Positions 10,617-64,000 of a DNA stretch of 64,000 nt are shown here, piece by piece. This DNA is from Escherichia phage vB_EcoM_CRP22. The stretch lies in sequence record OQ708377.1. The stretch is one strand, 5' to 3'. Numbering within the stretch: the first letter of the stretch is position 1; each line of letters opens with the position of its first letter. A program made the translations under genes and the position numbers. Below the pieces are notes generated by a model that saw nothing but the letters and a program-made list of their open reading frames with translations, was not told where the DNA came from and did not search any database.

Positions 10617-11045
10617 ATGAGAGATGAAGTATACAAATCACAACTTGGTATGAGTTTAGGAACTGCACAAAACAGACTAGTAAAAGATTTGCTATTCGAT
10701 TTTATATGTAAAACAAATCAAAATAGATGTTTTCAGTGCGGAAAAGAAATGACTAGGGATGATTTCTCCATCGAGCATAAGGTTCCGTGGAGACATAGTG
10801 AAAACGCAAAAGAGCTTTTCTTTTCACTGGATAATATCTCTTATAGTCATCTTAAATGTAATATGAAAGCAGCAAGACCAGCACAGATAAGTGAAAGAAA
10901 ACATAAAACAGTTGAACACGGAACTGCGTATAGCTATTACAAAGGCTGTAGATGCGAGGAGTGTAGGTTGGCTAAGAATGCTGCTAGCAGGAAGAACTAT
11001 AGCCCAGAAAGGCGTAGGAAGAAGTATTTAAGAAATGGCACATAG
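10617..11045 (+). CDS. HNH endonuclease (free-standing, inside tRNA array)
   Basis: 143 aa from internal ATG; CFQCGKEM...EHKVPW...HLKCN zinc-binding HNH-like motifs; the track ORF start at 10524 overlaps tRNA-Tyr and is rejected. Confidence 0.7.
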   Translation: MRDEVYKSQLGMSLGTAQNRLVKDLLFDFICKTNQNRCFQCGKEMTRDDFSIEHKVPWRHSENAKELFFSLDNISYSHLKCNMKAARPAQISERKHKTVEHGTAYSYYKGCRCEECRLAKNAASRKNYSPERRRKKYLRNGT

Positions 11046-11049
11046 TTTT

Positions 11050-11125
11050 GGGGTATTAGTTTAGACGGTTAAAATACGGGATTGTCTCTCCTGAGCCGCG
11101 AGTTCGATTCTCGCATACCTCGCCA
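11050..11125 (+). tRNA. tRNA-Asp (anticodon GTC)
   Basis: Acceptor ggggtat/atacctc, anticodon stem cggga/tcctg with loop ttGTCtc, T-arm gcgag-ttcgatt-ctcgc, CCA. Confidence 0.7.
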
Positions 11126-11273
11126 ATTTTGAGAGGGCTATTTAGCCCCTCCCTTAAAGAGTTATTACGAGTATTCTTTAAAGGAGCAGAAGACCAAATT
11201 CAGCAAGTTACTTAAAATTTCAAGCCAATTTAATTTTGAAAAATTTAAAACTTGGTCTGGCTTAACAAATTTA

Positions 11274-11404
11274 CAGAAGACCGTTTACAGCAAAACTTAA
11301 ACAATCTATTTCTCGGTAAAGAAAAGGCGAAGGTTCGATTCCTTCACTCGGCAGATGTCGAGTTGGTGTAATGGTAGCACTTAAGATGATAAACAACGGT
11401 CTGG
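11274..11404 (+). ncRNA. Candidate structured ncRNA: circularly permuted tRNA-like module enclosed by an 8-bp stem (possible Y-RNA/YrlA-like element)
   Basis: Linear order is stem strand agaccgtt, T-arm gaagg-ttcgatt-ccttc, acceptor 3' strand actcggc, 4-nt loop, acceptor 5' strand gtcgagt, D-arm gtgt-aatggta-gcac, stem strand aacggtct; the acceptor halves pair over 7 bp. Confidence 0.35.
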
Positions 11405-11405
11405 T

Positions 11406-11551
11406 AATTATCTTTGCAGTAGCTTATGTGGCTAATTATGTCGTCCCATGAGTGCCGATGAATTTCCTTAGCATGATTCTAGATTAGCTTAATAGGGAAT
11501 GACTCTACAGACCCTTTAGCAAGGTCTGCGTAGGTTACTGCAAAGATAATT
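11406..11551 (+). ncRNA. Candidate structured RNA domain closed by a 16-bp stem
   Basis: aattatctttgcagta (11406-11421) is the perfect reverse complement of tactgcaaagataatt (11535-11550), enclosing ~112 nt with an internal cagacc...ggtctg hairpin. Confidence 0.3.
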
Positions 11552-11555
11552 TAAT

Positions 11556-11631
11556 GGAAGTGTAGCAGAATGGTGATGCGGCAGACTTTTAATCTGACAG
11601 GCGATGGGTTCGAATCCATCCACTTCTACCA
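11556..11631 (+). tRNA. tRNA-Lys (anticodon TTT)
   Basis: Acceptor ggaagtg/cacttct, anticodon loop ctTTTaa, T-loop ttcgaat, CCA. Confidence 0.6.
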
Positions 11632-11635
11632 ATAT

Positions 11636-11712
11636 GGTTCAGTCGCAGATAAGGTAATGCAGGGGTCTCATAAGCCCTATGAATGTGGGTTCGATTCCCA
11701 TCTGAACCTCCA
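11636..11712 (+). tRNA. tRNA with anticodon CAT (Met, initiator-like, or Ile2)
   Basis: Acceptor ggttcag/ctgaacc, anticodon loop ctCATaa on a stem with three consecutive G-C pairs, T-loop ttcgatt, CCA. Confidence 0.7.
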
Positions 11713-11714
11713 AT

Positions 11715-11790
11715 GCTGTGAAAGCACATATGGATGTGCATTCGGCTGATAACCGAAAGGAAGAAGGTTCGAATCCTTCTCACAGTACCA
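11715..11790 (+). tRNA. tRNA-Ile (anticodon GAT)
   Basis: Acceptor gctgtga/tcacagt, anticodon stem ttcgg/ccgaa with loop ctGATaa, T-arm gaagg-ttcgaat-ccttc, CCA. Confidence 0.7.
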
Positions 11791-11805
11791 ATTTCAATAA
11801 AGTTG

Positions 11806-11834
11806 TTGACATTGAGATGTGACCACTTTATAGT
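11806..11834 (+). promoter_or_regulatory. sigma70-like promoter inside the tRNA array
   Basis: TTGACA - 17 nt - TATAGT, preceded by A-rich tract aaagttg. Confidence 0.5.
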
Positions 11835-12126
11835 AACTAAAATACTTCATAATATGTATAATTCAAACACCAATACATGAGTATTAGACGTAATGCAATG
11901 TGGGGAAATTTGTTGTACATATTCTGAATAGTTTTCGTTGCGTAGCGTCTATTTTGCAAATTTAAAATAAATGCAAACGACAATGTTTTTCTGGCAGTAG
12001 CTTGATAGGCTAAACACCAGTGAGGTCTTCCAATCCCTCATCAAAGAATTTGGCGTACTCGCCCACGGTATGATTAATAAGGTGGGCATCTTTAAGGGTT
12101 TTTAAGAGAGTCTTTAAAGATAATTA

Positions 12127-12208
12127 CGGGGCGTATCTCAGCTGTCTTCTAAACAGCCGTTAACCGAGTAAGTGGAGTATGCGGGTTCGAGTCCTGCCGC
12201 CTCGACCA
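12127..12208 (+). tRNA. Atypical tRNA-like gene, possibly Arg (anticodon TCT); D-arm not resolvable
   Basis: Acceptor cggggcg/cgcctcg, T-arm gcggg-ttcgagt-cctgc, CCA; clean stem gctgt/acagc with loop ctTCTaa but no canonical D-arm by eye. Confidence 0.4.
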
Positions 12209-12222
12209 ATTTTGGAGAAATC

Positions 12223-12570
12223 ATGAAAACTTGTATTAGGTGCAAACTTAGCAAGGATGAAAATGATTTCTACATGAAAGATGGTAGAAGAACTCATTCA
12301 TACTGTAAAAAGTGTGTTAATGAGCAAACCATAGAAAGACAAAGAGCACTTAAACTCTCAGCTATTGAGTACAAAGGTGGTGTTTGTCAGGATTGTGGTA
12401 AAAGGTATCATCCAGCAGTGTATGACTTCCATCATTTGAATCCTTCAGAGAAAGATTTTAACATTGCTCATAGAAGAAGTCTTAAGTTCTCTCAGGAGCT
12501 TAAGAACGAACTTGACAAATGTGTTTTGCTATGTTCAAATTGCCATAGGGTAAGACATGCAAAGTATTAG
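12223..12570 (+). CDS. HNH endonuclease (free-standing, inside tRNA array)
   Basis: 115 aa from internal ATG (MKTCIRCK...); CxxC pairs and FHHLNP...LLCSNCHRVRH HNH motif; the track start at 12172 overlaps the preceding tRNA-like gene. Confidence 0.7.
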   Translation: MKTCIRCKLSKDENDFYMKDGRRTHSYCKKCVNEQTIERQRALKLSAIEYKGGVCQDCGKRYHPAVYDFHHLNPSEKDFNIAHRRSLKFSQELKNELDKCVLLCSNCHRVRHAKY

Positions 12571-12707
12571 TTAGCAGATTGCTTAGACGACCTTATCGGG
12601 TCTCCGTGTAAGGAGGTGGTCTGTATCTCATGTTTTCCAGAACATGTAAATAATCTGAGAAGGGGCTTTACAGTGTTGAGATAATACGGTAAGCTTCGAA
12701 TTATAAT

Positions 12708-12790
12708 ATGGGACGATGTTAAGACTCTAAGGCATGAGCAACGGCTTCCAACACCGTTTCAAAGGGGTTCAACTCCTCCGTCCCATGCCA
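12708..12790 (+). tRNA. Atypical tRNA-like gene with an apparent 9-nt anticodon loop
   Basis: Perfect acceptor atgggac/gtcccat, T-loop ttcaact, CCA; best anticodon helix aacgg/ccgtt encloses cttccaaca (9 nt); D-region longer than canonical. Confidence 0.4.
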
Positions 12791-12803
12791 AAGTCTTATT
12801 AGG

Positions 12804-12893
12804 GGTAGGTAGCGGCTAATGGTAGCCAAACTGTCTTGAAAACAGTTGCCACTGTAGAGATACGGTGAGGGTTCGACTCCTTTACTTACCGCC
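12804..12893 (+). tRNA. tRNA-Ser (anticodon TGA), long variable arm
   Basis: Acceptor ggtaggt/acttacc, anticodon stem actgt/acagt with loop ctTGAaa, long variable arm, T-loop ttcgact. Confidence 0.7.
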
Positions 12894-13148
12894 TAATAAG
12901 ATTTAAAGCCAAGCTTCATTCGGATGTTGCTTTGGTATCCCTCGTGTATTGTCGTACACACTGATAAAGCACCTGGTAGGTGTCACGGAGAAGAGATAAT
13001 ATCAAGCTCTCCAAAGGTTCTAGTCACCGGATTAAACAAGACTATGCAAAGACCAATTTAGGTCTTTTTAGAGGGCTTCTAAGGTTATTACAGCTTGTTG
13101 TGGAACCTTGTTGCTTAGGTTCTTAGAAGTTCTCTAAAAAGATTTAAT

Positions 13149-13225
13149 GCACCTATAGCCCAATTGGTAGAGGCAGCAGACTTAGAATCTGTTCAGTGTG
13201 AGTTCGAATCTCTCTAGGTGTACCA
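13149..13225 (+). tRNA. tRNA with anticodon TAG (Leu-type), short variable arm
   Basis: Acceptor gcaccta/taggtgt, anticodon stem gcaga/tctgt with loop ctTAGaa, T-loop ttcgaat, A73, CCA. Confidence 0.6.
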
Positions 13226-13232
13226 AATTAAT

Positions 13233-13308
13233 GCAGGTGTAGCAAAATGGTTATGCGGCTGACTCTTAATCAGTAAGACGATGGGTTCAATTCCCTCCAC
13301 CTGTACCA
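13233..13308 (+). tRNA. tRNA-Lys (anticodon CTT)
   Basis: Acceptor gcaggtg/cacctgt, anticodon stem gctga/tcagt with loop ctCTTaa, T-loop ttcaatt (weak T-stem), CCA. Confidence 0.55.
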
Positions 13309-13314
13309 AACATT

Positions 13315-13390
13315 GGGGTCATAGTTTATATGGTTAAAATTCGAGTTTTGCAAACTTGGGAACTGAGTTCAATTCTCAGTGACTCCACCA
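13315..13390 (+). tRNA. tRNA-Ala (anticodon TGC)
   Basis: Acceptor ggggtca/tgactcc, anticodon stem cgagt/acttg with loop ttTGCaa, T-arm ctgag-ttcaatt-ctcag, CCA. Confidence 0.7.
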
Positions 13391-13396
13391 ATTAGT

Positions 13397-13471
13397 GCAT
13401 CCATAGTTTAAACGGGAAAATTACAGTCTTCCAAACTGAGGTTGAGGGTTCGATTCCCTCTGGATGCTCCA
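13397..13471 (+). tRNA. tRNA-Gly (anticodon TCC)
   Basis: Acceptor gcatcca/tggatgc, anticodon loop ctTCCaa, T-arm gaggg-ttcgatt-ccctc, CCA. Confidence 0.7.
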
Positions 13472-13478
13472 AATTAAT

Positions 13479-13555
13479 GCTGCTTTCGTATAATTGGCTA
13501 TTACACATCCCTTGTAAGGATGGAAATGCAGGTTCGAGTCCTGTGAGCAGCACCA
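13479..13555 (+). tRNA. tRNA-Thr (anticodon TGT)
   Basis: Acceptor gctgctt/gagcagc, anticodon stem catcc/ggatg with loop ctTGTaa, T-arm gcagg-ttcgagt-cctgt, CCA. Confidence 0.7.
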
Positions 13556-13651
13556 ATTCAGAGGTCAAGTGAAAGACCGCTTTGAGTCAACTGAAGACCG
13601 TAACAAATCCCACGGAGTTGAGTTAGCGGCACAACTTCAGACCTCTTTCAT

Positions 13652-13726
13652 ACTCGCTTAGTTTATATGGTAAAACATCAACCTTACAAGATGAAGAAAA
13701 AGGTTCAAGTCCTTTAGTGAGTACCA
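13652..13726 (+). tRNA. tRNA-Val (anticodon TAC)
   Basis: Acceptor actcgct/agtgagt, D-stem gttt/aaac, anticodon loop ctTACaa, T-arm aaagg-ttcaagt-ccttt, CCA. Confidence 0.65.
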
Positions 13727-13727
13727 T

Positions 13728-13805
13728 GTTCCAGTATCCCAATTGGCAGAGGATGCAAGCTCAAACCTTGTATTAGTGACGGTTCGAATCCGTCTTGGAA
13801 CACCA
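13728..13805 (+). tRNA. tRNA with anticodon CAA (Leu-type), short variable arm
   Basis: Acceptor gttccag/ttggaac, anticodon stem gcaag/cttgt with loop ctCAAac, T-arm gacgg-ttcgaat-ccgtc, A73, CCA. Confidence 0.6.
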
Positions 13806-13810
13806 ATTTT

Positions 13811-13885
13811 GCAGGATTAGTTCAAATGGATAGAGCAACAGTCTACGAAGCTGTTAATAGGGGTTCGAATCCCTTATCCTGCGCC
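13811..13885 (+). tRNA. tRNA-Arg (anticodon ACG)
   Basis: Perfect acceptor gcaggat/atcctgc, D-arm TAGTTCAAATGGATAGAGC, anticodon loop ctACGaa, T-loop ttcgaat, CCA. Confidence 0.75.
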
Positions 13886-13892
13886 AATTAAA

Positions 13893-13969
13893 TAGGGGAT
13901 TAGTTTACAAGGTTAAAACCTCGGTCTTTGAAATCGAAGAAGTTGGTTCAATTCCAACATCCCCCGCCA
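13893..13969 (+). tRNA. tRNA-Gln (anticodon TTG)
   Basis: Acceptor aggggat/atccccc (1-72 mismatch), D-stem gttt/aaac, anticodon stem tcggt/atcga with loop ctTTGaa, T-arm gttgg-ttcaatt-ccaac, CCA. Confidence 0.65.
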
Positions 13970-13971
13970 AT

Positions 13972-14050
13972 GCTCCATTACTCCAATTGGCAGAGAGGCC
14001 AGACTTAAAATCTGTGTTATGTATCGGTTCGAATCCGATATGGAGTACCA
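13972..14050 (+). tRNA. tRNA with anticodon TAA (Leu-type)
   Basis: Acceptor gctccat/atggagt, anticodon loop ctTAAaa, T-arm atcgg-ttcgaat-ccgat, A73, CCA; D-arm parse ambiguous. Confidence 0.55.
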
Positions 14051-14055
14051 AATTT

Positions 14056-14131
14056 AGCGGTATAGCATAACTGGCAATGCAGCAGTCTCTGAAGCTGTCT
14101 TATTAAGGTTCAAATCCTTATGCCGCTGCCA
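14056..14131 (+). tRNA. tRNA-Gln (anticodon CTG)
   Basis: Acceptor agcggta/tgccgct, D-stem gcat/atgc, anticodon stem gcagt/gctgt with loop ctCTGaa, T-loop ttcaaat, CCA. Confidence 0.65.
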
Positions 14132-14162
14132 CTTCTAAGGGTTCTTACGAGAGTCCTTAAAT

Positions 14163-14238
14163 GTGGCCTTATCATAAAAGGTAATGACCCATGCTGTGAA
14201 CATGGTCTATACGGGTTCAAATCCCGTAGGTCACCCCA
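14163..14238 (+). tRNA. tRNA-His (anticodon GTG)
   Basis: Acceptor gtggcct/aggtcac, anticodon stem ccatg/catgg with loop ctGTGaa, T-arm acggg-ttcaaat-cccgt, CCA. Confidence 0.7.
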
Positions 14239-14243
14239 ATTTA

Positions 14244-14320
14244 TAGTCCAAGTAGCTTATATGGTTAAAGCGCGTGTCTGAAAAACATGAGAAGAGGGTT
14301 CAAATCCCACTGGACTACCA
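14244..14320 (+). tRNA. tRNA-Phe (anticodon GAA)
   Basis: Acceptor tagtcca/tggacta, D-stem gctt/aagc, anticodon stem cgtgt/acatg with loop ctGAAaa, T-loop ttcaaat. Confidence 0.6.
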
Positions 14321-14337
14321 ATTTCAAAGGTGCTTAA

Positions 14338-15071
14338 TGAAAGAGATGACAGAACAAGGTAAGGAGATTTTTAATCTCTTAAAAACCGGTAGAGGGTTTT
14401 CTAATCCCCTTATTACTGGTGCAGCAGTTCTCGGTGGAACCGTAGCTACCTCTACATCACTTGTAAACTCTATTAGCTCTGTAACAGACCCTACAATAAA
14501 GGATAAACTTGTTGCTGCTGGACTTACAACAGTTCTGCTTAACAGCTTTACAACGAGTCTGACAAGCACTACATCAACCACTAAAACACCGACAGATTAC
14601 GGTCAAAAGTCCATTGATGAGTTTTCATCACGTATGCAGGTAGCAAAAGGATACTCTAATGTTATGGGTGCAGCAGGAGAGCAAGTTGGTTGTACACCAT
14701 TTAGTGGTATTATGGGTGTTGCTACAGAGTATGGTCAAAAAGCTATTGACACAATTAACAGTGCACTAGACGGTGTTAATGATGTATTAAGTGACTTACA
14801 AGATGCTATTGATAAAGGTCTTGATACTATTTCTGATTTAGCTAACCAAGCTGTTAGTAAGATTAATGAAGGTATTTCGAAGATTACAGCTTATGCAGAT
14901 GAAGTTGTGCAGATGATTGAAGAAGAAGCTGCCCTTATTGCAGAGTACCTTAAAACGAATATCAATGGGTTCTTAGCAGGTATCTTACCAGACTGGTTTG
15001 ACGATGCTTGTAAAACTGGTGTGATTGATACTATTGCAACACCAGAAATGAAGAACGCATTACAGAAATAA
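14338..15071 (+). CDS. hypothetical Ser/Thr-rich protein encoded inside the tRNA array
   Basis: 244 aa from internal ATG (MKEMTEQGKEIF...); the track start at 14274 overlaps tRNA-Phe; long S/T-rich region followed by a helical C-terminus. Confidence 0.45.
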
Positions 15072-15072
15072 T

Positions 15073-15165
15073 GGAAGATTAACCCTAAAAGGTAAGGGAG
15101 CAGTTTGCTAAACTGCCAGTAGCTGAGAAATCGGTGTACCAGTTCAAGTCTGGTATCTTCCTCCA
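15073..15165 (+). tRNA. tRNA-Ser (anticodon GCT), long variable arm
   Basis: Perfect acceptor ggaagat/atcttcc, anticodon stem gcagt/actgc with loop ttGCTaa, long variable arm, T-arm accag-ttcaagt-ctggt, CCA. Confidence 0.75.
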
Positions 15166-15169
15166 ATTT

Positions 15170-15245
15170 GAATCCGTGACAGAAATGGCTATGTGCCTGT
15201 CTGCAAAACAGGTTTATAAGGGTTCGAGTCCCTTCGGATTCTCCA
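15170..15245 (+). tRNA. tRNA-Cys (anticodon GCA)
   Basis: Perfect acceptor gaatccg/cggattc, anticodon stem cctgt/acagg with loop ctGCAaa, T-arm aaggg-ttcgagt-ccctt, CCA. Confidence 0.75.
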
Positions 15246-15284
15246 AGTTATTTTACTCTCTCTCTCAATTAAAATAATAATAAT

Positions 15285-15345
15285 GCCCTGCTATAAGTAT
15301 TCTTCCTTTCGCTACCGAAGAGTATTTTTAGACAGGGCTTTTTTA
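15285..15345 (+). terminator. Rho-independent terminator with nested hairpin, after tRNA array
   Basis: gccctg ... cagggc followed by TTTTTT. Confidence 0.5.
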
Positions 15346-15409
15346 CAGAGTTATACTTTATAAGAAGACTTATACAGTATGTCTCTGACGTACATTGTGG
15401 TTTCTCCTT

Positions 15410-15433
15410 GACGGTCTCTGTACCGTCTTTTTT
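15410..15433 (+). terminator. Rho-independent terminator
   Basis: gacggt-ctctgt-accgtc followed by TTTTTT. Confidence 0.6.
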
Positions 15434-15469
15434 AAGGAGAAACATAATTAATTATTTGGAGAAAACATA

Positions 15470-15670: not shown

Positions 15671-15691
15671 TTCTATTTGCGGAGGTGCTTA

Positions 15692-45201: not shown

Positions 45202-45735
45202 TCAAGATAGTTTTGCAAACTCTCCGTGGAGTTTCACAGCAGCTTCACAGTAAGCTTTATGGGCTTCTTCTGGTGTGTCATGGTAACCTAAAAACATCTT
45301 CTTACCTTTATAACTTATCTGTGCGACCCACTTACCAGACTTCTTCTTAAGACTTACACCCTTGTACCCAGATTTATTGGTGACTAGTTTACCTTTATTC
45401 CAAGCACTTTGAAAGTCATCTGCCTCCCTTAAGTTTACAATCCTGTTGTCAAGTGAATCTCCGTTGATATGGTCAATGATACCTTTTGGCATCTTGCCAT
45501 ACACGTAAAGCCATGCGAGTCTGTGTGCTTTATGTGCTTTCTTGTCAAAATAGATACTAATCTGTTTATGACCACTTGAATCAGTCTGGATATTACCTGC
45601 CACCTTTCCTGCATAATTACTATTAAAAACACTAACAGCTCTTGATTTACCTTCTCTACGAAGCCAAGTAAAGACCCCTGTTTCGGGGTCATAGTGCAGC
45701 AGCTCCTTTAAACGTTTTTGTAAAATTAAATCCAT
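45202..45735 (-). CDS. HNH homing endonuclease with AP2-like DNA-binding domain
   Basis: 177 aa; HNH motif IDHINGDSLDNRIVNLR and AP2-like GYKGVS...GKWVAQISYKGKKMFLGYHDTPEEAHKAY. Confidence 0.75.
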   Translation of the reverse strand: MDLILQKRLKELLHYDPETGVFTWLRREGKSRAVSVFNSNYAGKVAGNIQTDSSGHKQISIYFDKKAHKAHRLAWLYVYGKMPKGIIDHINGDSLDNRIVNLREADDFQSAWNKGKLVTNKSGYKGVSLKKKSGKWVAQISYKGKKMFLGYHDTPEEAHKAYCEAAVKLHGEFAKLS

Positions 45736-45738: not shown

Positions 45739-48438
45739 TCAATGTACCTCATACCAGCTCTTACCAACCTTTGCTGTACCAGTTACAAGTGTTTCTTTCC
45801 TCAAACCTAAGTTTTTTGAAGCTTGTCCATACATCCAGTCAGCAATTGCTTTCATATCATGTGTCATACCCTCTGGACATTCCCAACTATTTTCATCGTG
45901 ATATGCCAGAAGTAACCTTGCTCCGATAGCTGGTTTTCGAGCATTCAGTTTTGTCAGGCCATCTTCACAGGCTTTTCTTGCTGCTAGGTTGATGGCCTCA
46001 TTCTGAATCTGTGCTTCCGAACTCATCAGGAGGTAGTTCAGTAGTTTATGTGGAGATTTGCACCATATCCATGCTCCAGCGACCCTGATATAACCACCTT
46101 TAGCAATTGAAGAGTTCTTCCCAAAAACCTCTTCCAGAGCCTTTTTAGACGCCTTAAAATCAGCTTCTAAGCTATCAAGTAACTTCTTAATCTTTGGCAA
46201 ACGCATATAGTAAGTTTGTTTAGTCAATGCACCTTCTTCCGTAGATGATGCCTTGATAGTTTTTGCAAACTTCTCGTCTCCGGCTCCAAATAACAGGGCG
46301 TAGATGCCATTTTTGCTCTTCTTACGACCTTTTGTAATCTCGTGAAGAAGTTCCTCATCCTGTGTCTCCCTGCAACGAACAATATCTTCTTCCTTGTTCA
46401 GACCAAAGTAAATACTATTCAGTGTATGTGCATCAGTACCTGTGTAGACTTCGTAGAGGTCATTCTCAGCATCATAACGAAGATACTTATCAGTTTCTGG
46501 ATTGAGGTACTTATCGAGATGCTTGCAATAGTATCTCCCATCCTCTTGCTTGGTAAATTCTACTGACTCTTTACCTTCAGTTACCGCTTTGGTGAAGTCT
46601 TTATCACCCATAAAGTTACACAGTAAAACAAGCTGTGCAGAGTTCTGGTCAACTGAAACGATATTAGTCCCTTCCTCGCAAATCCAAACCTCCCTCATAG
46701 GCGCTCCATAGACAGCAGCACCAGACGGTACGTTTACAATACCATATTGTGTCATACGTCCAGTTGAAGTACCAAACACCATTGCACCAGCACTAAGGCG
46801 ACCATCAGGACGAATCTGGTTCAACCAACCTTTTTCATCATCCTTTGAGTTCTCAATAGTCCTACGTCGGTGCATCAAAGTATAGTATTTAGCAATCTTC
46901 TGTCCAAGCTCACCTTCAATCGTATCATAAGATGATTCAGTAAGTTTTGGTGAAGTACGGATTAAGCAAGGCTCAAGCAAATCTGTGTACTTCTTCACAG
47001 ACCAGTTATGTTCAATGTACTGGACACCTTCGTGTTCAACATAACTCAAACCACACCGTTCCACCATCTCATCCCACTTAGGATGTTTTGTAATCATCTT
47101 TTTGTTGTCTTTGAAGCGACAAACCTTAACAGGACGACCATCAGAGTCTTTCTTATAGTTCCAGTCATCTGGAATCCAACCAACTGATTTCAAGTAGTCT
47201 TTGACAACTGCTACCTGAGTCATACGAGAAACTTCGAACTCAATTGGTGTATATGGTGCATCAATCAAACCTGTGTAGCGACTTGACTCAAGCTCAAAGT
47301 GGTTAACAACATGGCTGTTATAGTACTTCACAGTTTTAACTGTTTTTACTGGCTTCCAGTCTTTGCACTTCTTACCAATCTTTGCATTCAACTCATTGCA
47401 AATTGCACGAGCATCCTTCATTGCTACAAAGCCTTCCTTGTACTCTTCACCAGTTACAGAGTTGGTTGGTGTATAGCAATTCCGCTTTTCAATGTTAAAA
47501 ATCTTGGTAGTTGGTTTACCAAATGGCTTGATTTCATATGTCTGCATCTCACCGTTGCGTACCTGTTGACGATACTTTGTCTTAGGGTACTTGGTAATCC
47601 TCTTCAGTCCATCTGCATGGCCAAATGCTTCAACATACTCATTCCAAGCTTTTGCAAATTCTTCTCCAGTGACTTTACCTTTAGTCTTAATAGTTGGAGG
47701 AAGATGTGGTTCAACTTCTGAAGCAAGCTCATTAGTCAACTTGTCAAGTTCCTTTACATGAAACTCCATAAGCTCTTTATCAGCTTTCCAACCATTGATA
47801 GCCTGTTGACTCATCCAGAAAGATGTTTCTTTAGCTCGCATGTAGGTTTCATAGGTGTCTACGCCACACTTCTTTAGCTTCAGATATTCATTATCCAATG
47901 CACGTTTAGTTTTGGCGTTGATACGGATATCTTCTACAACACGAGTGAAGATTTCTGCATTCCACACACCCCAATGTTCAATCTCTGGTTTACGGACACC
48001 AACACGAGCACCCCATGCTGCCAAGCCATGAGCACCTTTATAGCCTTTTGGAGTTGGCCTATCCATCCACTGAACACGAGACTGGATAAGAGAATCCTGA
48101 AAGAAATTACTCCACGGCTTACACTTTGGATTATCAAAGTTCCACAAATCAGGTGCAATGTGATTGAAAACCCACCAGTCATACCCTAAACCATTATGGA
48201 TGCAAAGTCGTTTTGCCTTTAACGCAAACTCAACACCTTCACGCAAGCCACCCTTAATGTACTTGGTATACTTGTGACCGAGGATAGGCTCATCTGTAAA
48301 GACCCATACAGGTGGCTCTTCATCGTCAGATTTATAGTCTGCGAAAGCCATTACGTGTACTTTAGTGAACTCAAGGAGTAAACCATCAGTTTCTGTATCA
48401 CCAACTAAATGTAAGTTTTTAAAATCTACGTTTTCCAT
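45739..48438 (-). CDS. DNA polymerase, family A (Pol I-like) with 3'-5' exonuclease domain
   Basis: Exo I motif LVGDTETDG near N-terminus; polymerase motifs KSKNGIYALLFGAG and LLAYHDE; start set to second ATG (MENVDF) preceded by GAGGGAG (track ORF extends to 48471). Confidence 0.9.
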   Translation of the reverse strand: MENVDFKNLHLVGDTETDGLLLEFTKVHVMAFADYKSDDEEPPVWVFTDEPILGHKYTKYIKGGLREGVEFALKAKRLCIHNGLGYDWWVFNHIAPDLWNFDNPKCKPWSNFFQDSLIQSRVQWMDRPTPKGYKGAHGLAAWGARVGVRKPEIEHWGVWNAEIFTRVVEDIRINAKTKRALDNEYLKLKKCGVDTYETYMRAKETSFWMSQQAINGWKADKELMEFHVKELDKLTNELASEVEPHLPPTIKTKGKVTGEEFAKAWNEYVEAFGHADGLKRITKYPKTKYRQQVRNGEMQTYEIKPFGKPTTKIFNIEKRNCYTPTNSVTGEEYKEGFVAMKDARAICNELNAKIGKKCKDWKPVKTVKTVKYYNSHVVNHFELESSRYTGLIDAPYTPIEFEVSRMTQVAVVKDYLKSVGWIPDDWNYKKDSDGRPVKVCRFKDNKKMITKHPKWDEMVERCGLSYVEHEGVQYIEHNWSVKKYTDLLEPCLIRTSPKLTESSYDTIEGELGQKIAKYYTLMHRRRTIENSKDDEKGWLNQIRPDGRLSAGAMVFGTSTGRMTQYGIVNVPSGAAVYGAPMREVWICEEGTNIVSVDQNSAQLVLLCNFMGDKDFTKAVTEGKESVEFTKQEDGRYYCKHLDKYLNPETDKYLRYDAENDLYEVYTGTDAHTLNSIYFGLNKEEDIVRCRETQDEELLHEITKGRKKSKNGIYALLFGAGDEKFAKTIKASSTEEGALTKQTYYMRLPKIKKLLDSLEADFKASKKALEEVFGKNSSIAKGGYIRVAGAWIWCKSPHKLLNYLLMSSEAQIQNEAINLAARKACEDGLTKLNARKPAIGARLLLAYHDENSWECPEGMTHDMKAIADWMYGQASKNLGLRKETLVTGTAKVGKSWYEVH

Positions 48439-48497
48439 TTGCACTCCCTCTAATTCATTAACCTCATACATTACTGCAAAAAATTATAAAAAGCAAG

Positions 48498-54305: not shown

Positions 54306-55352
54306 ATGGAGAAGTACACATTAACAAAACTTCCCGATTCAGTTACACATGTTTTTATTGACTCTGACAGTATTGCCTATAAAGGTGCTTGTGTAGTTGA
54401 GAAAGCAAAATATAAATATGTCAATAAACTCACAGCAGAAGAGTCTGAGCCATTTGATAATGCGAAAGATGCTGCAAGATGGTTATCAGACCAGAGAATC
54501 CTTGTGGAAGAGCTTGGCCTGACATTTGATGAAGATGAATGGGAAAGACAGACTTGGAAAGAAGCTAAGAGTGAAAAAGAAGCTATCATGGCTACTCAAC
54601 AGGTGCTTCAGGAATGGCTTAAGATTGTTGGTAAAGAAAGAACTTGGGTAGGTTATTTAACAGAGAAAGGTGTGCATAAGCATAAAGACATTAAAGGTCT
54701 TGAGCACCAATATCAAGGTAACCGTAAAGATGCTGTCACACCAACACACTTAGTTGCTTGTCGTGAGTATCTTCTGTCAAGACCAGAGTTTAAATTGATT
54801 CTTGATGGATTTGAAGCTGACTCTATCGTTATTGCTAAAGCTGAAAAGATGGGTAAAAAGGCTGCCTTAATGAGTATTGATAAAGACCTTCGCCAAGCTG
54901 AAGGGACTTACTGCATTGATATGACCTATGAGAAGTCACCTTTGATTTTCATTGCTGATAACAACGTTGGTGAAATTTGGGATTGTCCAATAAAATCGAC
55001 ACCAAAAGCTAAGAAGACAGTTGGGGTAGGTTTTAAATTTCTTTGTTACCAAGCTGTGGCTGGTGATAATGCAGATAACTATTTTGGTTTAAAGGGCGTT
55101 GGTAAGGTTGCTGTAATGAAAGCCCTTGAAGGTAAAACTACTTACAAAGAGTGTCTTGATGCAATTTATGAGCTTTATGCTAAGAAAGAGTCATACACTT
55201 ATGTCTCGTGGGATGGTCAAACAATTACCAGAACACCCTTAGAGTTAATGCAGCAACACTTTTTCTTAGCTTATCAGGAAAGAAATAAGAAAGACGATTT
55301 TACTTTTGATAAGTATGGGTGGACACCAAATGTTAACTCAACAAACTCTTAA
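54306..55352 (+). CDS. putative 5'-3' exonuclease / RNase H (FEN-like)
   Basis: 348 aa; N-terminal VFIDSDSIAYKG resembles the flap-endonuclease/T4 RNase H N-terminal motif. Confidence 0.45.
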   Translation: MEKYTLTKLPDSVTHVFIDSDSIAYKGACVVEKAKYKYVNKLTAEESEPFDNAKDAARWLSDQRILVEELGLTFDEDEWERQTWKEAKSEKEAIMATQQVLQEWLKIVGKERTWVGYLTEKGVHKHKDIKGLEHQYQGNRKDAVTPTHLVACREYLLSRPEFKLILDGFEADSIVIAKAEKMGKKAALMSIDKDLRQAEGTYCIDMTYEKSPLIFIADNNVGEIWDCPIKSTPKAKKTVGVGFKFLCYQAVAGDNADNYFGLKGVGKVAVMKALEGKTTYKECLDAIYELYAKKESYTYVSWDGQTITRTPLELMQQHFFLAYQERNKKDDFTFDKYGWTPNVNSTNS

Positions 55353-55366
55353 AGAATACCTACACT

Positions 55367-55822
55367 ATGACCCCGAAACAGGGGGTCTTTACTTGGATTA
55401 AGAAGTCTGCTAAGCACACAAAAATTGGTTCTGTTGCAGGTACAAACTTAAGGGGATACATCAGAATCTATTTGTTTGGTAAGGGTTATTATGCACATAC
55501 ACTGGCTGTTCTGTATATGGATGGTTACCTCCCTGAGTGTGTTGACCATAAAAATCATGTAACCCTAGATAATCGCTGGATAAATCTTAGGGCATGTACG
55601 TTATCAGAGAACCAATGTAATAGGTTACTCAATAAGAATAATAAATCAGGTGTTAAAGGTGTGTACTACAAAAAACAGTATGGTAAGTGGTCTACACAGA
55701 TAACTTTTAAGAAGAGAGTTTACTTCTTCGGCAACTATGACACGATTGCTGAAGCAGCAGAGGTTGTAAATAGGGAACGTCAACGGTTACACAGAGAGTT
55801 TGCTAATAAAGGTGATGAATGA
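55367..55822 (+). CDS. HNH homing endonuclease with AP2-like domain
   Basis: 151 aa; VDHKNHVTLDNRWINLR HNH motif and SGVKGVYYKKQYGKWSTQITFKKRVYFFGNYDTIAEAA AP2-like region; paralog of 45202..45735. Confidence 0.75.
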   Translation: MTPKQGVFTWIKKSAKHTKIGSVAGTNLRGYIRIYLFGKGYYAHTLAVLYMDGYLPECVDHKNHVTLDNRWINLRACTLSENQCNRLLNKNNKSGVKGVYYKKQYGKWSTQITFKKRVYFFGNYDTIAEAAEVVNRERQRLHREFANKGDE

Positions 55823-56319
55823 GAAAAATAAAAGGTTTTGGCAATTGCCCTGAATATGGACATTGGACTTCACTATGTGGTGAGGTTGACCCAGCAAAGC
55901 ACTTTGGTTTTGTCTACCTAGTGTACTGCAAAAAGACTGGACAGTACTATTTGGGTAAAAAACAGCTTAATAGCGTGACCAAAAGAAAAGTTGCTGGTAA
56001 GACTCGGAAGAAGGTAGTCACTAAGGAGAGTGATTGGATGACTTATGAGACTTCTTCTGAGTATATTAAAAAAGATATTGAGAGCTTTGGAAAAGAATTT
56101 TTTGACTTTTACATTATTCAGACCTACTACACAAAAGGTGGCCTAGTCTATGGTGAAGCAAACCTTCAACATAAATTCGATGTAATGACAAAAAGGATTG
56201 ACTCGAAGCTCAGACTCTTCTACAATGCCAATATTGCAGCAATTAAGTTTATCACTAAAGAAACTTATGAAGATGCTGAAAAAAGAATCCATAAGGTAAT
56301 GAAAGCAAATCGTGCTTGA
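55819..56319 (+). CDS. hypothetical protein, possible GIY-YIG-like nuclease
   Basis: 166 aa; FVYLVYCKKTGQYYLGKK loosely resembles a GIY-(10-11)-YIG spacing; weak. Confidence 0.3.
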   Translation: MRKIKGFGNCPEYGHWTSLCGEVDPAKHFGFVYLVYCKKTGQYYLGKKQLNSVTKRKVAGKTRKKVVTKESDWMTYETSSEYIKKDIESFGKEFFDFYIIQTYYTKGGLVYGEANLQHKFDVMTKRIDSKLRLFYNANIAAIKFITKETYEDAEKRIHKVMKANRA

Positions 56320-57958: not shown

Positions 57959-57984
57959 AGGGAGCCTCTTCGGGGGCTCTTTTC
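57959..57984 (+). terminator. Rho-independent terminator
   Basis: gggagcc-tcttc-gggggctc followed by TTTT. Confidence 0.65.
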
Positions 57985-58000
57985 ATCTGTAGGATTCAAA

Positions 58001-60235: not shown

Positions 60236-60290
60236 TTTTAATAACTATGAGGGTCGTAAAAGACCCTCTAAAATTAACTTTGGAGAGACC

Positions 60291-60548
60291 ATGAAAGATT
60301 TAATAGAAAAACATGAGCGACCTATATACTTGCTCCACAAGCCTCGGAAAACGATGTACTATGTGAGTAGCACAGATATGATGATAAAACAAAAGGATGA
60401 CTCATGGGTTGCTGGTATCTCTTACATCTCTACAGCAGATGGTAAAATCTACGCAAGACCTTATGAGATGTTCAACAAAGAAAATTGGGAAGTTTTAGAC
60501 AGAAAACAAGCCTTAGAAATGATAAAGAAAGGAGAAATCACGCTATGA
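60291..60548 (+). CDS. hypothetical small protein between nrdA and nrdB
   Basis: 85 aa from internal ATG after GGAGAG; overlaps nrdB start by ATGA. Confidence 0.35.
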   Translation: MKDLIEKHERPIYLLHKPRKTMYYVSSTDMMIKQKDDSWVAGISYISTADGKIYARPYEMFNKENWEVLDRKQALEMIKKGEITL

Positions 60549-61618: not shown

Positions 61619-61860
61619 TGACTTATGTAATTTACTCCAAAACTGGATGCCCTCAATGTGAGACTGCAAAGAATTTTGCAAAAGCTCGTGGTATTGACCA
61701 TGTTGTGAGAATGTTGGGGCAGGATTATGAACTGTCAGACCTGATTGATATTGCACAGATGCCAGTTCGTCAGATGCCATTCATCATGAAAACTGATGGT
61801 CAAAATCTAAAACCTGTTGGAATGCTACAGAATTTCATGGCAGAGGTGAATAATGCTTAA
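61618..61860 (+). CDS. glutaredoxin-like redoxin
   Basis: 80 aa; active site CPQC near N-terminus (KTGCPQCETAK), thioredoxin-fold size. Confidence 0.8.
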   Translation: MTYVIYSKTGCPQCETAKNFAKARGIDHVVRMLGQDYELSDLIDIAQMPVRQMPFIMKTDGQNLKPVGMLQNFMAEVNNA

Positions 61861-62059
61861 ACGCCTTTGGGAAGGCTTGGTTGTTGATGCACCAGCTATT
61901 GTGATTGGTATGCTTATTGTTAACCTATTTACTGACTTTGAACAAGGTTCATTGTTTGGAGCCATGTTACTATGGGTTATCTTCGAAATATTAGAGATAC
62001 AGCTAGGTATCACTGAAAAACTAAGAGAACTCTTTGCGAAGTTTTCTAAAAAGATTTAA
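61853..62059 (+). CDS. hypothetical small membrane protein
   Basis: 68 aa with hydrophobic segments. Confidence 0.3.
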   Translation: MLKRLWEGLVVDAPAIVIGMLIVNLFTDFEQGSLFGAMLLWVIFEILEIQLGITEKLRELFAKFSKKI

Positions 62060-62066
62060 AATGAAA

Positions 62067-62088
62067 GGGTCTCTTCGGAGACCTTTTT
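62067..62088 (+). terminator. Rho-independent terminator
   Basis: gggtctc-ttcg-gagacc followed by TTTTT. Confidence 0.65.
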
Positions 62089-62107
62089 AGCATGTAAAGG
62101 GGCAATA

Positions 62108-63304
62108 ATGAACAAAGTACAGATTATTAAAAAGAATGGCTCACTCGAAGAACCTGATATCAAAAAAGTTTTAGCAGCAGTCACAAAGTCAGCTAACAGG
62201 GTTGGATATAAAGAACTCCCACCAGATGTTACCCAAGCTCTTGAGTCAGCATTTATGAGGATTCTGGTAAAATCTACTAAACAGAATAATTTGCTAATTT
62301 CTGTAAATGATATTCACAGTATTGTTGAGGGTGCTTTGGCAGAAGTCAATCACGAGATTTATGAGTCTTACTCAACATATAGAAATTACCGTAAAGAAGT
62401 TGCTCAAAATTGGGATGAGCTTTACCAGAAGACCAAAGACACACTCTTCTTAGGTGACAGAGAGAATGCTAACTTTGATAGCAGTTTAATTTCTACAAAA
62501 GGTTCAATTATTCGTGGTTATCTGACTAAAGAAATCTTTAAACAGTACCACTTAACACCAGAGGAACTTGAAGCCATTGAAAAAGGGTTTATCTACATCC
62601 ATGACTTAAGAGACCTAATTTTTGGTGGTATCAACTGTTGCCTGTTCGACATTGGTAAAGTCCTGAAAGGTGGCTTTGAAATGTCCGGCATCGAATATTG
62701 TGAACCAAAGTCTGTGCTGTCGGCATTACAGGTTATTGGTGACGTAGTTCTTTCAGCAACTGCACAGCAATTTGGTGGATTTACTTTAGCAGAGATTGAT
62801 AAGGTACTTGTACCGTATGCTAAGAAGTCTCTACGCTATCATGCTGAGAAAGCAGCATCTTATGGTATTCCTAAAGAGCATTACCACAATTATGTCATGG
62901 AGCAGCTACAGATTGAGCTAACTCAAGGTTTCCAGTCACTTGAAATGAAACTAAATACTGTACCTTGTAGTCGTGGGGATTTTGCATTCACAACTTTGAC
63001 ATTCGGGTTACTTGACTCAGATATGTCCAATGAAGATAACCGACTGCAATATATAATTGCAAGTACTCTCCTAGATGTTCGTATGAATGGACAAGGTAAG
63101 AGCAAAAAGCCTGTTGTATTCCCTAAACTGGTTTATATTTATGACCAGAAGAGACATAATGAGAATATCTGTCAAGGACACCTGTACAGTAAAGCCATTG
63201 AGTGTTGCTCTAAAGCAATGTATCCAGATTTCTTAAGTGTATCTGGTCATGGTGCTGTAGCAGAGGCTTTTGAGCGTTCTGGCAAGGTAATTTCACCGAT
63301 GGGT
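62108..63304 (+). CDS. nrdD: anaerobic ribonucleoside-triphosphate reductase (NrdD), exon 1 only
   Basis: ATP-cone N-terminus; IHDLRDLIFGGINCCLFDIGKVLKGGFE and ...SPMG align with T4 NrdD as I recall it, where the protein continues CRSFLS; here the frame stops right after PMG at an intron-like sequence. Confidence 0.8.
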
Positions 63305-64000
63305 TAACAAGCTCTATAGCTCATCTAAAACGTGCCTAAACAGGGAAACTCTACAGGTGTAGACAATCCTGTGCTAAATGATGTACGATGTAAGAAACTA
63401 TATAAATAGGAGTATTACATGCCAAATTATCATGTTACTGAGGACGGAAGAGTCTTTAGGAAAAATGGTGTAGAACTTACGCAGTGGAAATCCAACACTG
63501 GTTATATGAAAGTAAGGTTTTATGGAAGGAAGAATCGTGACATGTATGTCCATAGGTTAGTTGCTGAAAAGTATGTACCTAACCCTAACAATCTTCCAAT
63601 TGTAAAACACAAAGATGATAACAAACTGAACAACCATGCTTCTAACTTAGAATGGGGAACTCATTCTGAGAATGTTAAAGAGGGTTATGAAAACGGTTGC
63701 TACAAGTTTTGTAAGCGTTCATATGCTGTGAAGGCTACACACAAAGTGACAAAAGAAGTTATTGTTGCTAAGTCAATACGAGAGTTATCCAACATACTCG
63801 GATATAATCGCAAGACTATCTCTTCAATATTGAAGGGTGTAAAAGAGCATAATAACTTTGAACATGAATTTGAGTACATTTAAATGCCGAACGACTAACC
63901 GTGATGAATGTAGCGGTGTAGGGTCAAGCGACTCGAAATGGTACGCTACTTAGAAATAAGTAGAAGATATAGTCTGGACTTACTGGTGACAGTAAGCAGC
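63305..64000 (+). mobile_element. Group I self-splicing intron in nrdD carrying an HNH endonuclease ORF; extends beyond window end
   Basis: 5' part ctaaacagggaaactctacaggtgtagacaatcctgtgctaaat closely resembles the T4 td intron core as recalled (CUAAACGGGGAACCUCU...UAGACAAUCCCGUGCUAAAU); 3' part has gggtcaagcgactcgaaa and atagtctgg; no downstream exon within window. Confidence 0.7.
63419..63883 (+). CDS. intron-encoded HNH homing endonuclease
   Basis: 154 aa; YVHRLVAEKYVPNP...VKHKDDNKLNNHASNLEWGTHSEN HNH motif; ATG after AGGAG; lies inside the intron. Confidence 0.75.
   Translation: MPNYHVTEDGRVFRKNGVELTQWKSNTGYMKVRFYGRKNRDMYVHRLVAEKYVPNPNNLPIVKHKDDNKLNNHASNLEWGTHSENVKEGYENGCYKFCKRSYAVKATHKVTKEVIVAKSIRELSNILGYNRKTISSILKGVKEHNNFEHEFEYI

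Follow-up and report, generated by a model that had tools for sequence, protein, structure and literature searches.

Six homing-type endonuclease genes in a Felixounavirus genome segment and the tRNA-Asp allele that accompanies one of them

[quoted passage not shown] HNH-AP2 endonucleases of phages and cyanobacteria have been proposed as the source of the plant AP2/ERF domain. In phage T4, homing by SegB co-converts the tRNA region (PMC2330249). Multiple HNH genes, an nrdD intron and a polymerase intron have already been published for Felixounavirus. FelixO1 has six HNH copies (PMC3185647). In phage Meda, nrdD is interrupted by an HNH gene, where an intron is implied by the next sentence of that paper, and the DNA polymerase gene contains an intron without an ORF (PMC6486253).

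The window analysed here is a stretch of 64,000 nucleotides from Escherichia phage vB_EcoM_CRP22 (OQ708377.1). It is part of a FelixO1-like genome (Felixounavirus) and shares 94–97% identity with hundreds of records. Six homing-type genes were found in it, five HNH genes and one GIY-YIG gene. This load of selfish genes is genuine, but of a kind already known in Felixounavirus. The features are as follows.

HNH1, 10617..11045, plus strand: free-standing HNH gene between tRNA-Tyr (10507-10594) and tRNA-Asp; phrog_23251, 1.6e-81
Alternative tRNA-Asp(GUC) allele, 11050..11125, plus strand: found by ARAGORN; Rfam 55.4 bits
Atypical tRNA, 12127..12208, plus strand: tRNA-Arg in the annotation of relatives; Rfam tRNA 31.2 bits; anticodon loop CUUCUAA
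HNH2, 12223..12570, plus strand: free-standing HNH gene with a GGAG ribosome-binding site; phrog_2255, 2.8e-39
HNH3, 45202..45735, minus strand: free-standing gene with HNH_3 (9e-15) and AP2 (1.7e-11) domains; phrog_99, 2.1e-71
Last 184 polymerase codons, 45739..46296, minus strand: part of the intron-less gene 45739-48471, bounded by the HNH3 insertion and the intron site 46295/46296
HNH4, 55330..55822, plus strand: HNH_3 and AP2 paralogue flanked by the 5'-3' exonuclease and GIY-YIG genes; intact ORF 55367-55822; PHROG 3.9e-58
SegE-like GIY-YIG gene, 55819..56319, plus strand: Pfam SegE_GIY-YIG 9.2e-27; phrog_7363 homing endonuclease, 2e-15
nrdD exon 1, 62108..63304, plus strand: Pfam NRDD profile positions 1-250 of 562, plus the ATP-cone
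Group I intron in nrdD, 63305..64000, plus strand: first 696 nt of about 742, the 3' end lying about 45 nt past the window
HNH5, 63419..63883, plus strand: intron-encoded, I-HmuI-like HNH_3 (2.6e-10) with weak NUMOD1; phrog_59, 1.3e-43

All five HNH reading frames listed by the first-pass annotation were present, and the PHROG families that they match are annotated as HNH endonuclease. That list of at least five endonucleases was right for the HNH genes but left out the GIY-YIG gene at 55819-56319. HNH3, HNH4 and HNH5 pass the Pfam HNH_3 profile, and a DH/KH...N...NL...EN motif is visible in their translations. HNH1 (1.4e-3, 19.2 bits) and HNH2 (2e-3, 18.6 bits) are matched in PHROGs and stay below the Pfam HNH cut-off of 21.4 bits. 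Pfam HNH is matched by nine of the 12 HNH1 homologues, the best at 1.3e-5. The CxxC...EH...N...HxxCN motif is invariant among these homologues, and residues C38, C41, H54, N73, H78, C81 and N82 of HNH1 are invariant or nearly so. A search among solved structures found no sequence match for HNH1. HNH2 aligns to the HNH domain of McrA with the pattern CxxC...HH...N...CxxCH..H.

At each of the five HNH loci, some close relatives carry the gene and others do not. Every gene corresponds to an exact ORF-sized gap in the many relatives that lack it, and the empty site is intact. BPS17W1 has HNH1, HNH3, HNH5 and the polymerase intron and is devoid of HNH2 and HNH4. HY02 has HNH3 and HNH4 and no introns, and FelixO1 has HNH2 and no HNH1. 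The elements thus assort independently across genomes of 94–97% identity. Such a variable occurrence of ORF-sized insertions in very close relatives is characteristic of mobile elements. The active invasion described earlier is shown for the genus but not for this particular genome, in which HNH4 is frameshifted.

The two HNH genes of the tRNA array are mutually unrelated, free-standing and located in spacers, and they share the strand of the tRNAs. Homologues of both were found inside tRNA arrays of unrelated phage genera. About 22 of 259 relatives carry HNH1. The copies in BPS17W1 and P219 are 100% identical to it and already bear the annotation HNH endonuclease. HNH1 had been described as directly abutting a tRNA 3' end; it does lie beside tRNA-Tyr, but starts 22 nt past it. 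Its stop codon is 4 nt from tRNA-Asp. At the empty site of FelixO1, tRNA-Tyr and tRNA-Asp are 5 nt apart. The tRNA-Asp of the window replaces the FelixO1-type tRNA-Asp, with 67% identity between them, and the alternative allele and HNH1 occur in exactly the same records (22/22). Homologues of HNH1 were sampled from Vequintavirinae, Stephanstirmvirinae, Ounavirinae, Otagovirus, Lahexavirus and from Vibrio and Bacillus phages. Eleven of the 12 are located within tRNA arrays or at an array edge, and in most of the array-located ones the stop codon is at most 30 nt from the next tRNA. As a tentative proposal, for which we see less than an even chance, HNH1 and tRNA-Asp may form a two-gene mobile module, and the HNH1 lineage may be specialised for phage tRNA arrays. 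In such a module, the target of HNH1 would be the resident tRNA-Asp region of FelixO1 type, and the tRNA-Asp gene there would be exchanged by homing for the module's own resistant allele. A lineage specialised for arrays could therefore move tRNA alleles from phage to phage, which might affect escape from tRNA-cleaving host defences.

Compared with BPS17W1, the HNH2 insertion is clean and 354 bp long (about 12213-12566), and the empty site of this type reads CCAAT/TTAGTTAGC, with the slash marking the point of insertion. It is carried by about 25 of 265 relatives. FelixO1 ORF44 and ORF47 are paralogues of HNH2 at other inter-tRNA sites, and in a T5-like phage a homologue (35% identity) directly follows tRNA-Phe. 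HNH2 had also been placed directly against a tRNA; the atypical tRNA does precede it, but 14 nt separate the CCA end from the start codon. This tRNA was missed by ARAGORN, and its anticodon stem differs between relatives by a compensatory change. The array HNH copies had been suggested as the cause of the atypical tRNA-like pieces nearby. This origin fails because the pieces at 11126-11555, 11791-12208 and 12571-12803 are conserved in relatives without the adjacent HNH gene, namely FelixO1 (no HNH1) and BPS17W1 (no HNH2). A tblastn search of the spacers with 11 endonuclease proteins found no decayed endonuclease gene. The sole real link between the HNH genes and the tRNAs is the replaced tRNA-Asp allele, which always accompanies HNH1.

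HNH3 follows the DNA polymerase stop codon by 3 nt and is a 530-bp insertion, consisting of the ORF only, relative to phage EC6. Its AP2 domain scores 44.7 bits, above the Pfam gathering score of 33.3 bits, and matches plant AP2/ERF structures (7WQ5, 6.8e-7). The polymerase gene is intron-less in the window, and relatives have a group I intron at 46295/46296. In BPS17W1 the intron at this site is ORF-less (Rfam 62 bits), and in EC6 it carries an Endonuclease_7 ORF. Between the HNH3 insertion and the intron site, the polymerase is only 76% identical to EC6 at the nucleotide level, compared with 94% and 90% in the flanks. The last exon has 82% amino-acid identity, and all of the ten codons around the intron site contain synonymous differences.

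The first-pass annotation had paired HNH3 and HNH4 as AP2-domain paralogues. They are indeed paralogues (39% identity, E 3e-30), but the AP2 match of HNH4 is sub-threshold (1e-3, 19.7 bits), and the domain is recognised by alignment to HNH3 across it. The HNH_3 match of HNH4 is 6e-11. The gene directly follows the exonuclease gene, and in BPS17W1 31 nt stand in place of window positions 55308-55824. Although an ORF is present at 55367..55822 as had been reported, a 5' frameshift was missed and the gene starts at 55330. A run of five G at 55381-55385 breaks the frame, where relatives have four (compared with HY02). The ORF at 55367 is thus what remains of a longer gene whose native start was lost. 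The start of the GIY-YIG gene overlaps the HNH4 stop codon (ATGA). This gene is mislabelled 'NAD synthetase' in RefSeq relatives. It is present in nearly all relatives, and its near-fixation in the genus is more in keeping with domestication or immobility than with spread.

The nrdD gene is interrupted one codon ahead of a conserved Cys. Exon 1 has 399 codons and ends ...PMG before the conserved CRAF codons; in HY02, nrdD is uninterrupted (714 aa). By its core score and splice-site features, the interruption is assigned as a group I intron. In the window, Rfam Intron_gpI matches in two pieces (38.1 and 16.5 bits), below the gathering score of 50. The core is divided by the ORF, and about 45 nt of the 3' end, beyond the region matched by the model, fall outside the window. 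With 55.4 bits, the ORF-less homologue in REP9 exceeds the gathering score. The junctions read ...AUGGGU/UAACAAG...CAACAAG/UGUAGAGCG; the last nucleotide is U in exon 1 and G in the intron, and GAUGGGU is complementary, with G-U pairing, to GCUCAUC. Joining the exons gives PMG-CRAFLSPY, the same as in HY02. The intron core, the splice-site features and the intron-less HY02 gene agree with the earlier call of HNH5 as intron-encoded. HNH5 sits in a peripheral loop of the intron, and its residues 3-145 align to residues 12-163 of I-HmuI (PDB 1U3E, E 4.5e-10). Relatives show three nrdD states, namely the intron with the ORF, the intron without it and no intron. In the REP9 intron, only the first 3 and the last 10 HNH5 codons remain.

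From these sequence comparisons, the window is very probably a Felixounavirus stretch with six selfish homing-endonuclease genes, for which spread by homing is the proposed mechanism. During co-infection with a relative lacking the gene, the nuclease would nick or cut the empty allele. The relative would then acquire the endonuclease gene, with some of the DNA beside it, through recombinational repair. The flanks of HNH1 and HNH3 are replaced or unusually diverged, which in a static comparison is consistent with co-conversion, as are the synonymous changes around the polymerase intron site. The swapped tRNA-Asp and the diverged polymerase exon may be nuclease-resistant variants of the target carried along in this manner. 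The nucleases are predicted to cleave the empty alleles, and the genes may still be active. Presence and absence alone could also come from deletions in relatives. The elements would then be vertically inherited, immobile relics, deleted in many relatives, in a process of decay rather than ongoing invasion. The frameshift in HNH4, the loss of the REP9 intron ORF by an internal in-frame deletion, the nearly universal GIY-YIG gene and the differences of up to 25% among HNH1 proteins of Felixounaviruses, which imply long residence, point in this direction. However, the empty sites are clean and without scars, being inter-tRNA spacers of 2-7 nt or uninterrupted genes, and the elements assort independently among genomes of 94–97% identity. 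Besides, the flanks beside the genes have been replaced or have diverged much further than the backbone, as predicted by co-conversion from a foreign donor and not by deletion. Decay is the least probable of the readings, and we consider it very unlikely.

Spread by homing can also be compared with two more specific readings. The tRNA-array endonucleases might be kept for the benefit of the phage, spreading or amplifying tRNA genes against host tRNA-cleaving defences, and so would not be purely selfish. SegB homologues are enriched beside phage tRNAs, and amplification of tRNA-Tyr driven by them, with escape from Septu, has been reported for SegB in T6 (PMC13096335). The array habit of HNH1 homologues in different phage genera and the strict linkage of HNH1 to the alternative tRNA-Asp allele agree with such a role. 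However, HNH1 or HNH2 is found in only about 8–10% of Felixounavirus records, a frequency not indicative of a strong general benefit, and tandem tRNA gene amplification was not seen within the window. This reading is improbable, although less so than decay. A slightly better chance, still a small one, is given to HNH3 as the trans-acting nuclease of the polymerase intron, the ORF-less intron and the gene moving together by 'collaborative homing'. In polymerase alleles without an intron, HNH3 would cut at the point where the intron inserts. It lies about 560 bp from that site, no segment is more diverged than the exon between the two, and the ORF-less intron and the HNH-AP2 gene occur together in BPS17W1 and Meda (PMC6486253). 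The free-standing endonuclease mobE, which promotes homing in trans, is a precedent (PMC2790892). On the other hand, HNH3 occurs with an intron-less polymerase in the window and in HY02, and in other relatives the intron carries an Endonuclease_7 ORF of its own and the HNH-AP2 gene is missing. Since HNH3 sits beside an intron-less polymerase here, it is not cutting that exact allele.

The main value of these findings lies in annotation and comparative work. The endonuclease genes explain the split nrdD, and the 'NAD synthetase' mislabel was exposed. They also mark sites of DNA exchange in Felixounavirus, where local identity is unreliable for phylogeny. The pairing of HNH1 with tRNA-Asp, together with the array habit of the HNH1 lineage in different phage genera, offers a small lead that ties to recent work in which tRNA-cluster endonucleases can aid phage escape from tRNA-targeting defences.

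Compared with known systems, HNH1 and HNH2 resemble the tRNA-cluster endonuclease genes of T4 and T6 (SegB) and of T5 in being free-standing and lying between tRNA genes of the same strand. SegB is a GIY-YIG enzyme, whereas the two genes here have the HNH fold. No description was found of the tie of HNH1 to a replacement tRNA-Asp allele. HNH3 has the HNH_3 domain followed by the AP2 domain, as in HNH-AP2 endonucleases of phages and cyanobacteria; in HNH4, unlike in those enzymes, AP2 is below the Pfam threshold and rests on homology to HNH3. HNH5 aligns over nearly its full length with I-HmuI of Bacillus phage SPO1. Both are located in a phage group I intron and share the HNH_3 catalytic domain and a C-terminal helix-turn-helix (NUMOD1), but the I-HmuI intron is in a DNA polymerase gene and that of HNH5 is in nrdD. 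The T4 nrdD (sunY) intron with I-TevIII is likewise a group I intron with an HNH-type ORF in the anaerobic ribonucleotide reductase gene, and a 41-nt stretch of the window intron is about 98% identical to a T4-like phage intron. However, the insertion site differs from the T4 type (exon 1 of about 181 codons in T4-like HY03 and 399 here), and the endonuclease of the window intron is I-HmuI-like, unlike that of the T4 nrdD intron. Unlike the published Felixounavirus elements, the window is free of the polymerase intron and of the Met/Ile and Gly/Thr HNH genes, and it has its own combination, in which the HNH1, HNH2, HNH3, HNH4 and HNH5 sites are all occupied.

Over 300 phage records, nearly all of them from Felixounavirus, aligned at 94-97% identity with the window's tRNA region (9800-15400) and with its replication region (40000-64000). 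By this sequence likeness, the window is assigned to Felixounavirus (FelixO1-like, Ounavirinae). The stretch 10015-15245 contains 25 tRNA genes by ARAGORN, every one on the + strand, and the remaining gene order was as in FelixO1, BPS17W1 and HY02. The first-pass annotation had reported five HNH endonuclease genes, and all of them were found where it had placed them. A sixth homing-type gene was also identified. The genes are as follows.

10617-11045, + strand: HNH#1, free-standing HNH endonuclease gene in the tRNA array
12223-12570, + strand: HNH#2, free-standing HNH endonuclease gene in the tRNA array
45202-45735, - strand: HNH#3, HNH_3 and AP2 gene next to the DNA polymerase gene
55367-55822, + strand: HNH#4, HNH_3 and AP2 gene
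63419-63883, + strand: HNH#5, HNH gene of the nrdD intron
55819-56319: SegE-like GIY-YIG endonuclease gene, overlapping the stop codon of HNH#4

All five HNH proteins fell into PHROG families annotated as HNH endonuclease (E-values from 1.6e-81 to 2.8e-39). In Pfam, HNH_3 matched HNH#3, HNH#4 and HNH#5 clearly, AP2 was clear in HNH#3 and weak in HNH#4, and a weak NUMOD1 match appeared in HNH#5. HNH#1 and HNH#2 reached the Pfam HNH family at about 1e-3 only, slightly under the curated cut-off. Profile searches with Pfam and PHROGs taken together confirmed the HNH motifs in all five; therefore, the observation of five HNH genes stands. The AP2-type proteins of HNH#3 and HNH#4 are paralogues, as had been proposed (39% identity, E 3e-30). 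A domain scan of 20 other window ORFs of unknown function found no nuclease domains. RefSeq relatives and PHROG 447 label the SegE-like gene 'NAD synthetase', apparently a misannotation that has been propagated.

HNH#5 had been described as intron-encoded, and Rfam searches bore this out: pieces of a group I intron flank the ORF (38.1 and 16.5 bits). Almost the entire protein aligns with I-HmuI (1U3E, E 4.5e-10). The nrdD frame stops at 63304-63307 after 399 codons, covering positions 1-250 of 562 in Pfam NRDD, and the nrdD of HY02 runs uninterrupted for 714 codons. In BPS17W1, nrdD is interrupted at this position by 742 nt. The exon ends with U and the intron with G, GAUGGGU pairs with GCUCAUC, and the joined exons give PMG-CRAFLSPY as in HY02. 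A whole-window Rfam search at gathering thresholds returned no group I intron; this one was detectable only by a local E-value search and in its ORF-less homologue. The REP9 version, which keeps only the first three and the last ten codons of the ORF, scored 55.4 bits, over the curated threshold. Among about 300 matched records, the intron carried the ORF in 59 and lacked it in others, and intron-less records formed the largest group. The intron extends about 45 nt beyond the window end. A 41-nt part of it matches the nrdD intron of T4-like phages at about 98% identity, but theirs is inserted at a different site.

HNH#3 begins 3 nt past the stop codon of the DNA polymerase gene. It is absent from EC6, where 3 nt correspond to window 45206-45735. 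Three states of the polymerase locus were found.

Intron-less polymerase with HNH#3: window and HY02
ORF-less group I intron (Rfam 62 bits) at the equivalent of 46295/46296, with HNH#3: BPS17W1
Intron with an Endonuclease_7 ORF, without the HNH-AP2 gene: EC6 and others

From the intron site to HNH#3, the window's exon shares 76% identity with that of EC6, compared with 94% and 90% for the adjoining sequence on its two sides. Comparison of the window with BPS17W1 shows synonymous differences in 10 of 10 codons around the intron site. Such divergence is what would be expected of endonuclease-linked alleles that compete and whose flanks have been co-converted. Nearby, 713 bp are inserted in BPS17W1 where the DNA ligase gene begins (locus L003 of this phage, 7273-7985; about 44300 in the window); this insertion is absent from the window, and its small ORFs are annotated as ligase pieces. 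The ligase gene start is thus another polymorphic insertion site.

At HNH#4, relatives showed an exonuclease with HNH and GIY-YIG genes, an exonuclease with the GIY-YIG gene only, or a diverged exonuclease 3' end. BPS17W1 has 31 nt in place of window 55308-55824, including a different exonuclease C-terminus. The HY02 gene starts at an ATG equivalent to 55330. In the window, one extra G in the run 55381-55385 (G5) puts this start out of frame, and the long ORF can be opened only from the internal ATG at 55367. Since the G5 form was not found in IMG/VR and the G4 form occurs there in 4 contigs, the extra G may be either a homopolymer sequencing error or a real inactivating or truncating change. 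The 5' ends of HNH#3 (45699-45734, - strand) and HNH#4 (55353-55389, + strand) also share a near-identical 36-nt patch, CTGCACTATGACCCCGAAACAGGGGTCTTTACTTGG, containing a CCCC-GAAACA-GGGG hairpin, and elsewhere the two proteins are 39% identical. The patch points to either gene conversion or a regulatory element that has been conserved.

In the tRNA array, HNH#1 starts 22 nt past tRNA-Tyr and stops 4 nt ahead of tRNA-Asp. The motif CxxC...EH...N...HxxCN was invariant in an alignment of HNH#1 with 11 homologues, and 9 of these 12 sequences matched Pfam HNH. Sequence searches of solved structures with HNH#1 alone and with the 12-member profile gave nothing useful. In FelixO1, which lacks HNH#1, the two tRNA genes are 5 nt apart. 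The tRNA-Asp beside HNH#1 is not the FelixO1 gene: the two are about 67% identical in alignment, and homology picks up again only at the final bases of the tRNA. Judged by alignment, the difference between the two loci exceeds a simple insertion. The HNH#1 insert was found in 21 of 259 relatives by megablast with flanks. The alternative tRNA-Asp (11050-11125) is present in 22 Felixounavirus records, and tblastn found close HNH#1 homologues in exactly those 22, with the protein diverged down to 75% identity; in BPS17W1 and P219 it is 100% identical. The same tRNA-Asp has U rather than a purine at anticodon-loop position 37, as do tRNA-Asp genes of several unrelated phages (loci L012, L013, L017 and L023).

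Of 12 homologues of HNH#1 sampled outside the genus (42-54% identity), 11 are located within or bordering a tRNA array and share its strand; in most, the stop codon is at most 30 nt from the next tRNA (Asp, Ile, Leu, Gly, Gln, Thr or Asn). A homologue (47% aa) together with a similar tRNA-Asp (about 79% nt) was seen only in the Seunavirus phages SalP219 and NINP13076. This at most hints that the pair may move between genera as a unit, because the closest homologues in other genera lie upstream of tRNA-Ile or tRNA-Asn.

HNH#2 has the ribosome-binding site GGAG, starts 14 nt past the CCA end of an atypical tRNA, and aligns to the HNH domain of McrA. That tRNA is the following.

12127-12208: atypical tRNA, anticodon loop CUUCUAA (UCU, Arg), little or no D-arm, long variable region

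It scored 31.2 bits in Rfam, was missed by ARAGORN, and is annotated as tRNA-Arg in several relatives. Its anticodon stem shows a compensatory change among relatives (GCUGU/ACAGC vs GCGGU/ACCGC). At the HNH#2 site, BPS17W1 lacks exactly 354 bp and is otherwise collinear (junction ...CCAAT|TTAGTTAGC...); about 25 of 265 relatives have the gene. FelixO1 carries paralogues at 33-46% identity, ORF44 between tRNA-Met and tRNA-Ile and ORF47 between tRNA-Gly and tRNA-Thr. In the window neither of these sites holds a gene, the tRNAs being separated by 2 and 7 nt. Therefore, the genus has at least three inter-tRNA sites where members of this lineage reside. Homologues also occur in the tRNA arrays of Pakpunavirus PAK_P2 and a T5-like phage.

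The first-pass annotation had also suggested that the HNH genes explain the tRNA-like pieces nearby. This part did not hold: 11126-11555, 11791-12126 and 12571-12803 are conserved in relatives without an adjacent HNH gene, which rules out the fragments as by-products of insertion. A tblastn search with 11 endonuclease proteins, taken from this phage and from relatives, found no decayed endonuclease genes in the long spacers of the array. Therefore, the HNH genes do not account for these pieces, and from the sequence comparisons no tRNA change other than the tRNA-Asp swap is linked to an HNH gene.

Several other features of the array were observed. At 11329-11381, within a segment (11100-11714) 89% identical in FelixO1, three hairpins follow in order: T-arm-like (GAAGGUUCGAUUCCUUC), a closed 7-bp 'acceptor' (ACUCGGC-AGAU-GUCGAGU) and D-arm-like (GGUGUAAUGGUAGCAC). 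A circularly permuted tRNA would show this order, as would a fusion of two tRNA fragments. A tRNA-like fold at 12708-12789 carries a 3' CCA and combines an acceptor-type stem of 8 bp with a T-arm-like hairpin; it had no Rfam match, and its folding energy is only slightly better than that of shuffled sequence (z = -1.7). A 558-bp DUF7338 ORF lies between tRNA-Arg(ACG) and tRNA-Gln in FelixO1, SME50 and BPS17W1 (L002 5277-5834 and L010 2113-2670 in the phage loci) and is missing at the corresponding window site, 13887-13893. An ORF of the same length adjoins tRNA-Gln in Pseudomonas phage PPSC2, a likeness in length and place. Possibly, the DUF7338 ORF is a further mobile gene of tRNA arrays, one that encodes no nuclease. 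A DUF7217 ORF of 265 aa (14274-15071; Pfam 4.6e-88) between tRNA-Phe and tRNA-Ser(GCU) was present in all four phages examined (SME50, FelixO1, BPS17W1 and the window), and Pfam and PHROG profiles found no nuclease domain in it.

Ordinary homing is the best-supported reading of the endonuclease genes. In a mixed infection, the nuclease would cut or nick the allele without the nuclease gene, and repair would then copy the gene and adjoining DNA into the cut allele. Comparison of the insertion points with endonuclease-free relatives gave clean presence or absence at fixed sites. The elements assort independently among near-identical genomes, all three states of the nrdD intron were found, and flanks beside the endonuclease genes are replaced or diverged. 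Alongside these observations, it is very unlikely that the genes are relics, no longer mobile. SegB has been shown to benefit phage through tRNA-gene spread or amplification (PMC13096335); by analogy, such a benefit could be added to homing here, and we consider it unlikely. That HNH#3 acts in trans for the polymerase intron, with which it coexists as an ORF-less form in BPS17W1, is also unlikely.

Endonucleases are encoded in the tRNA cluster of T5. SegB of T4 is likewise an endonuclease gene in a phage tRNA cluster (PMC2330249). Six HNH copies were described in the FelixO1 genome paper (PMC3185647), and the Meda announcement described an HNH gene interrupting nrdD, implying an intron, as well as a polymerase gene with an ORF-less intron (PMC6486253). 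Besides, window-type ORFs are already annotated as HNH endonuclease in GenBank relatives. Given the published HNH copies, introns and tRNA-cluster endonucleases, the finding is therefore already known: the five-HNH observation is real, was read correctly in the main, and is ordinary for Felixounavirus. The literature searched held no description of the strict HNH#1/tRNA-Asp pairing or of the tRNA-array habit of the HNH#1 lineage across phage genera. Both fit a known kind of element.
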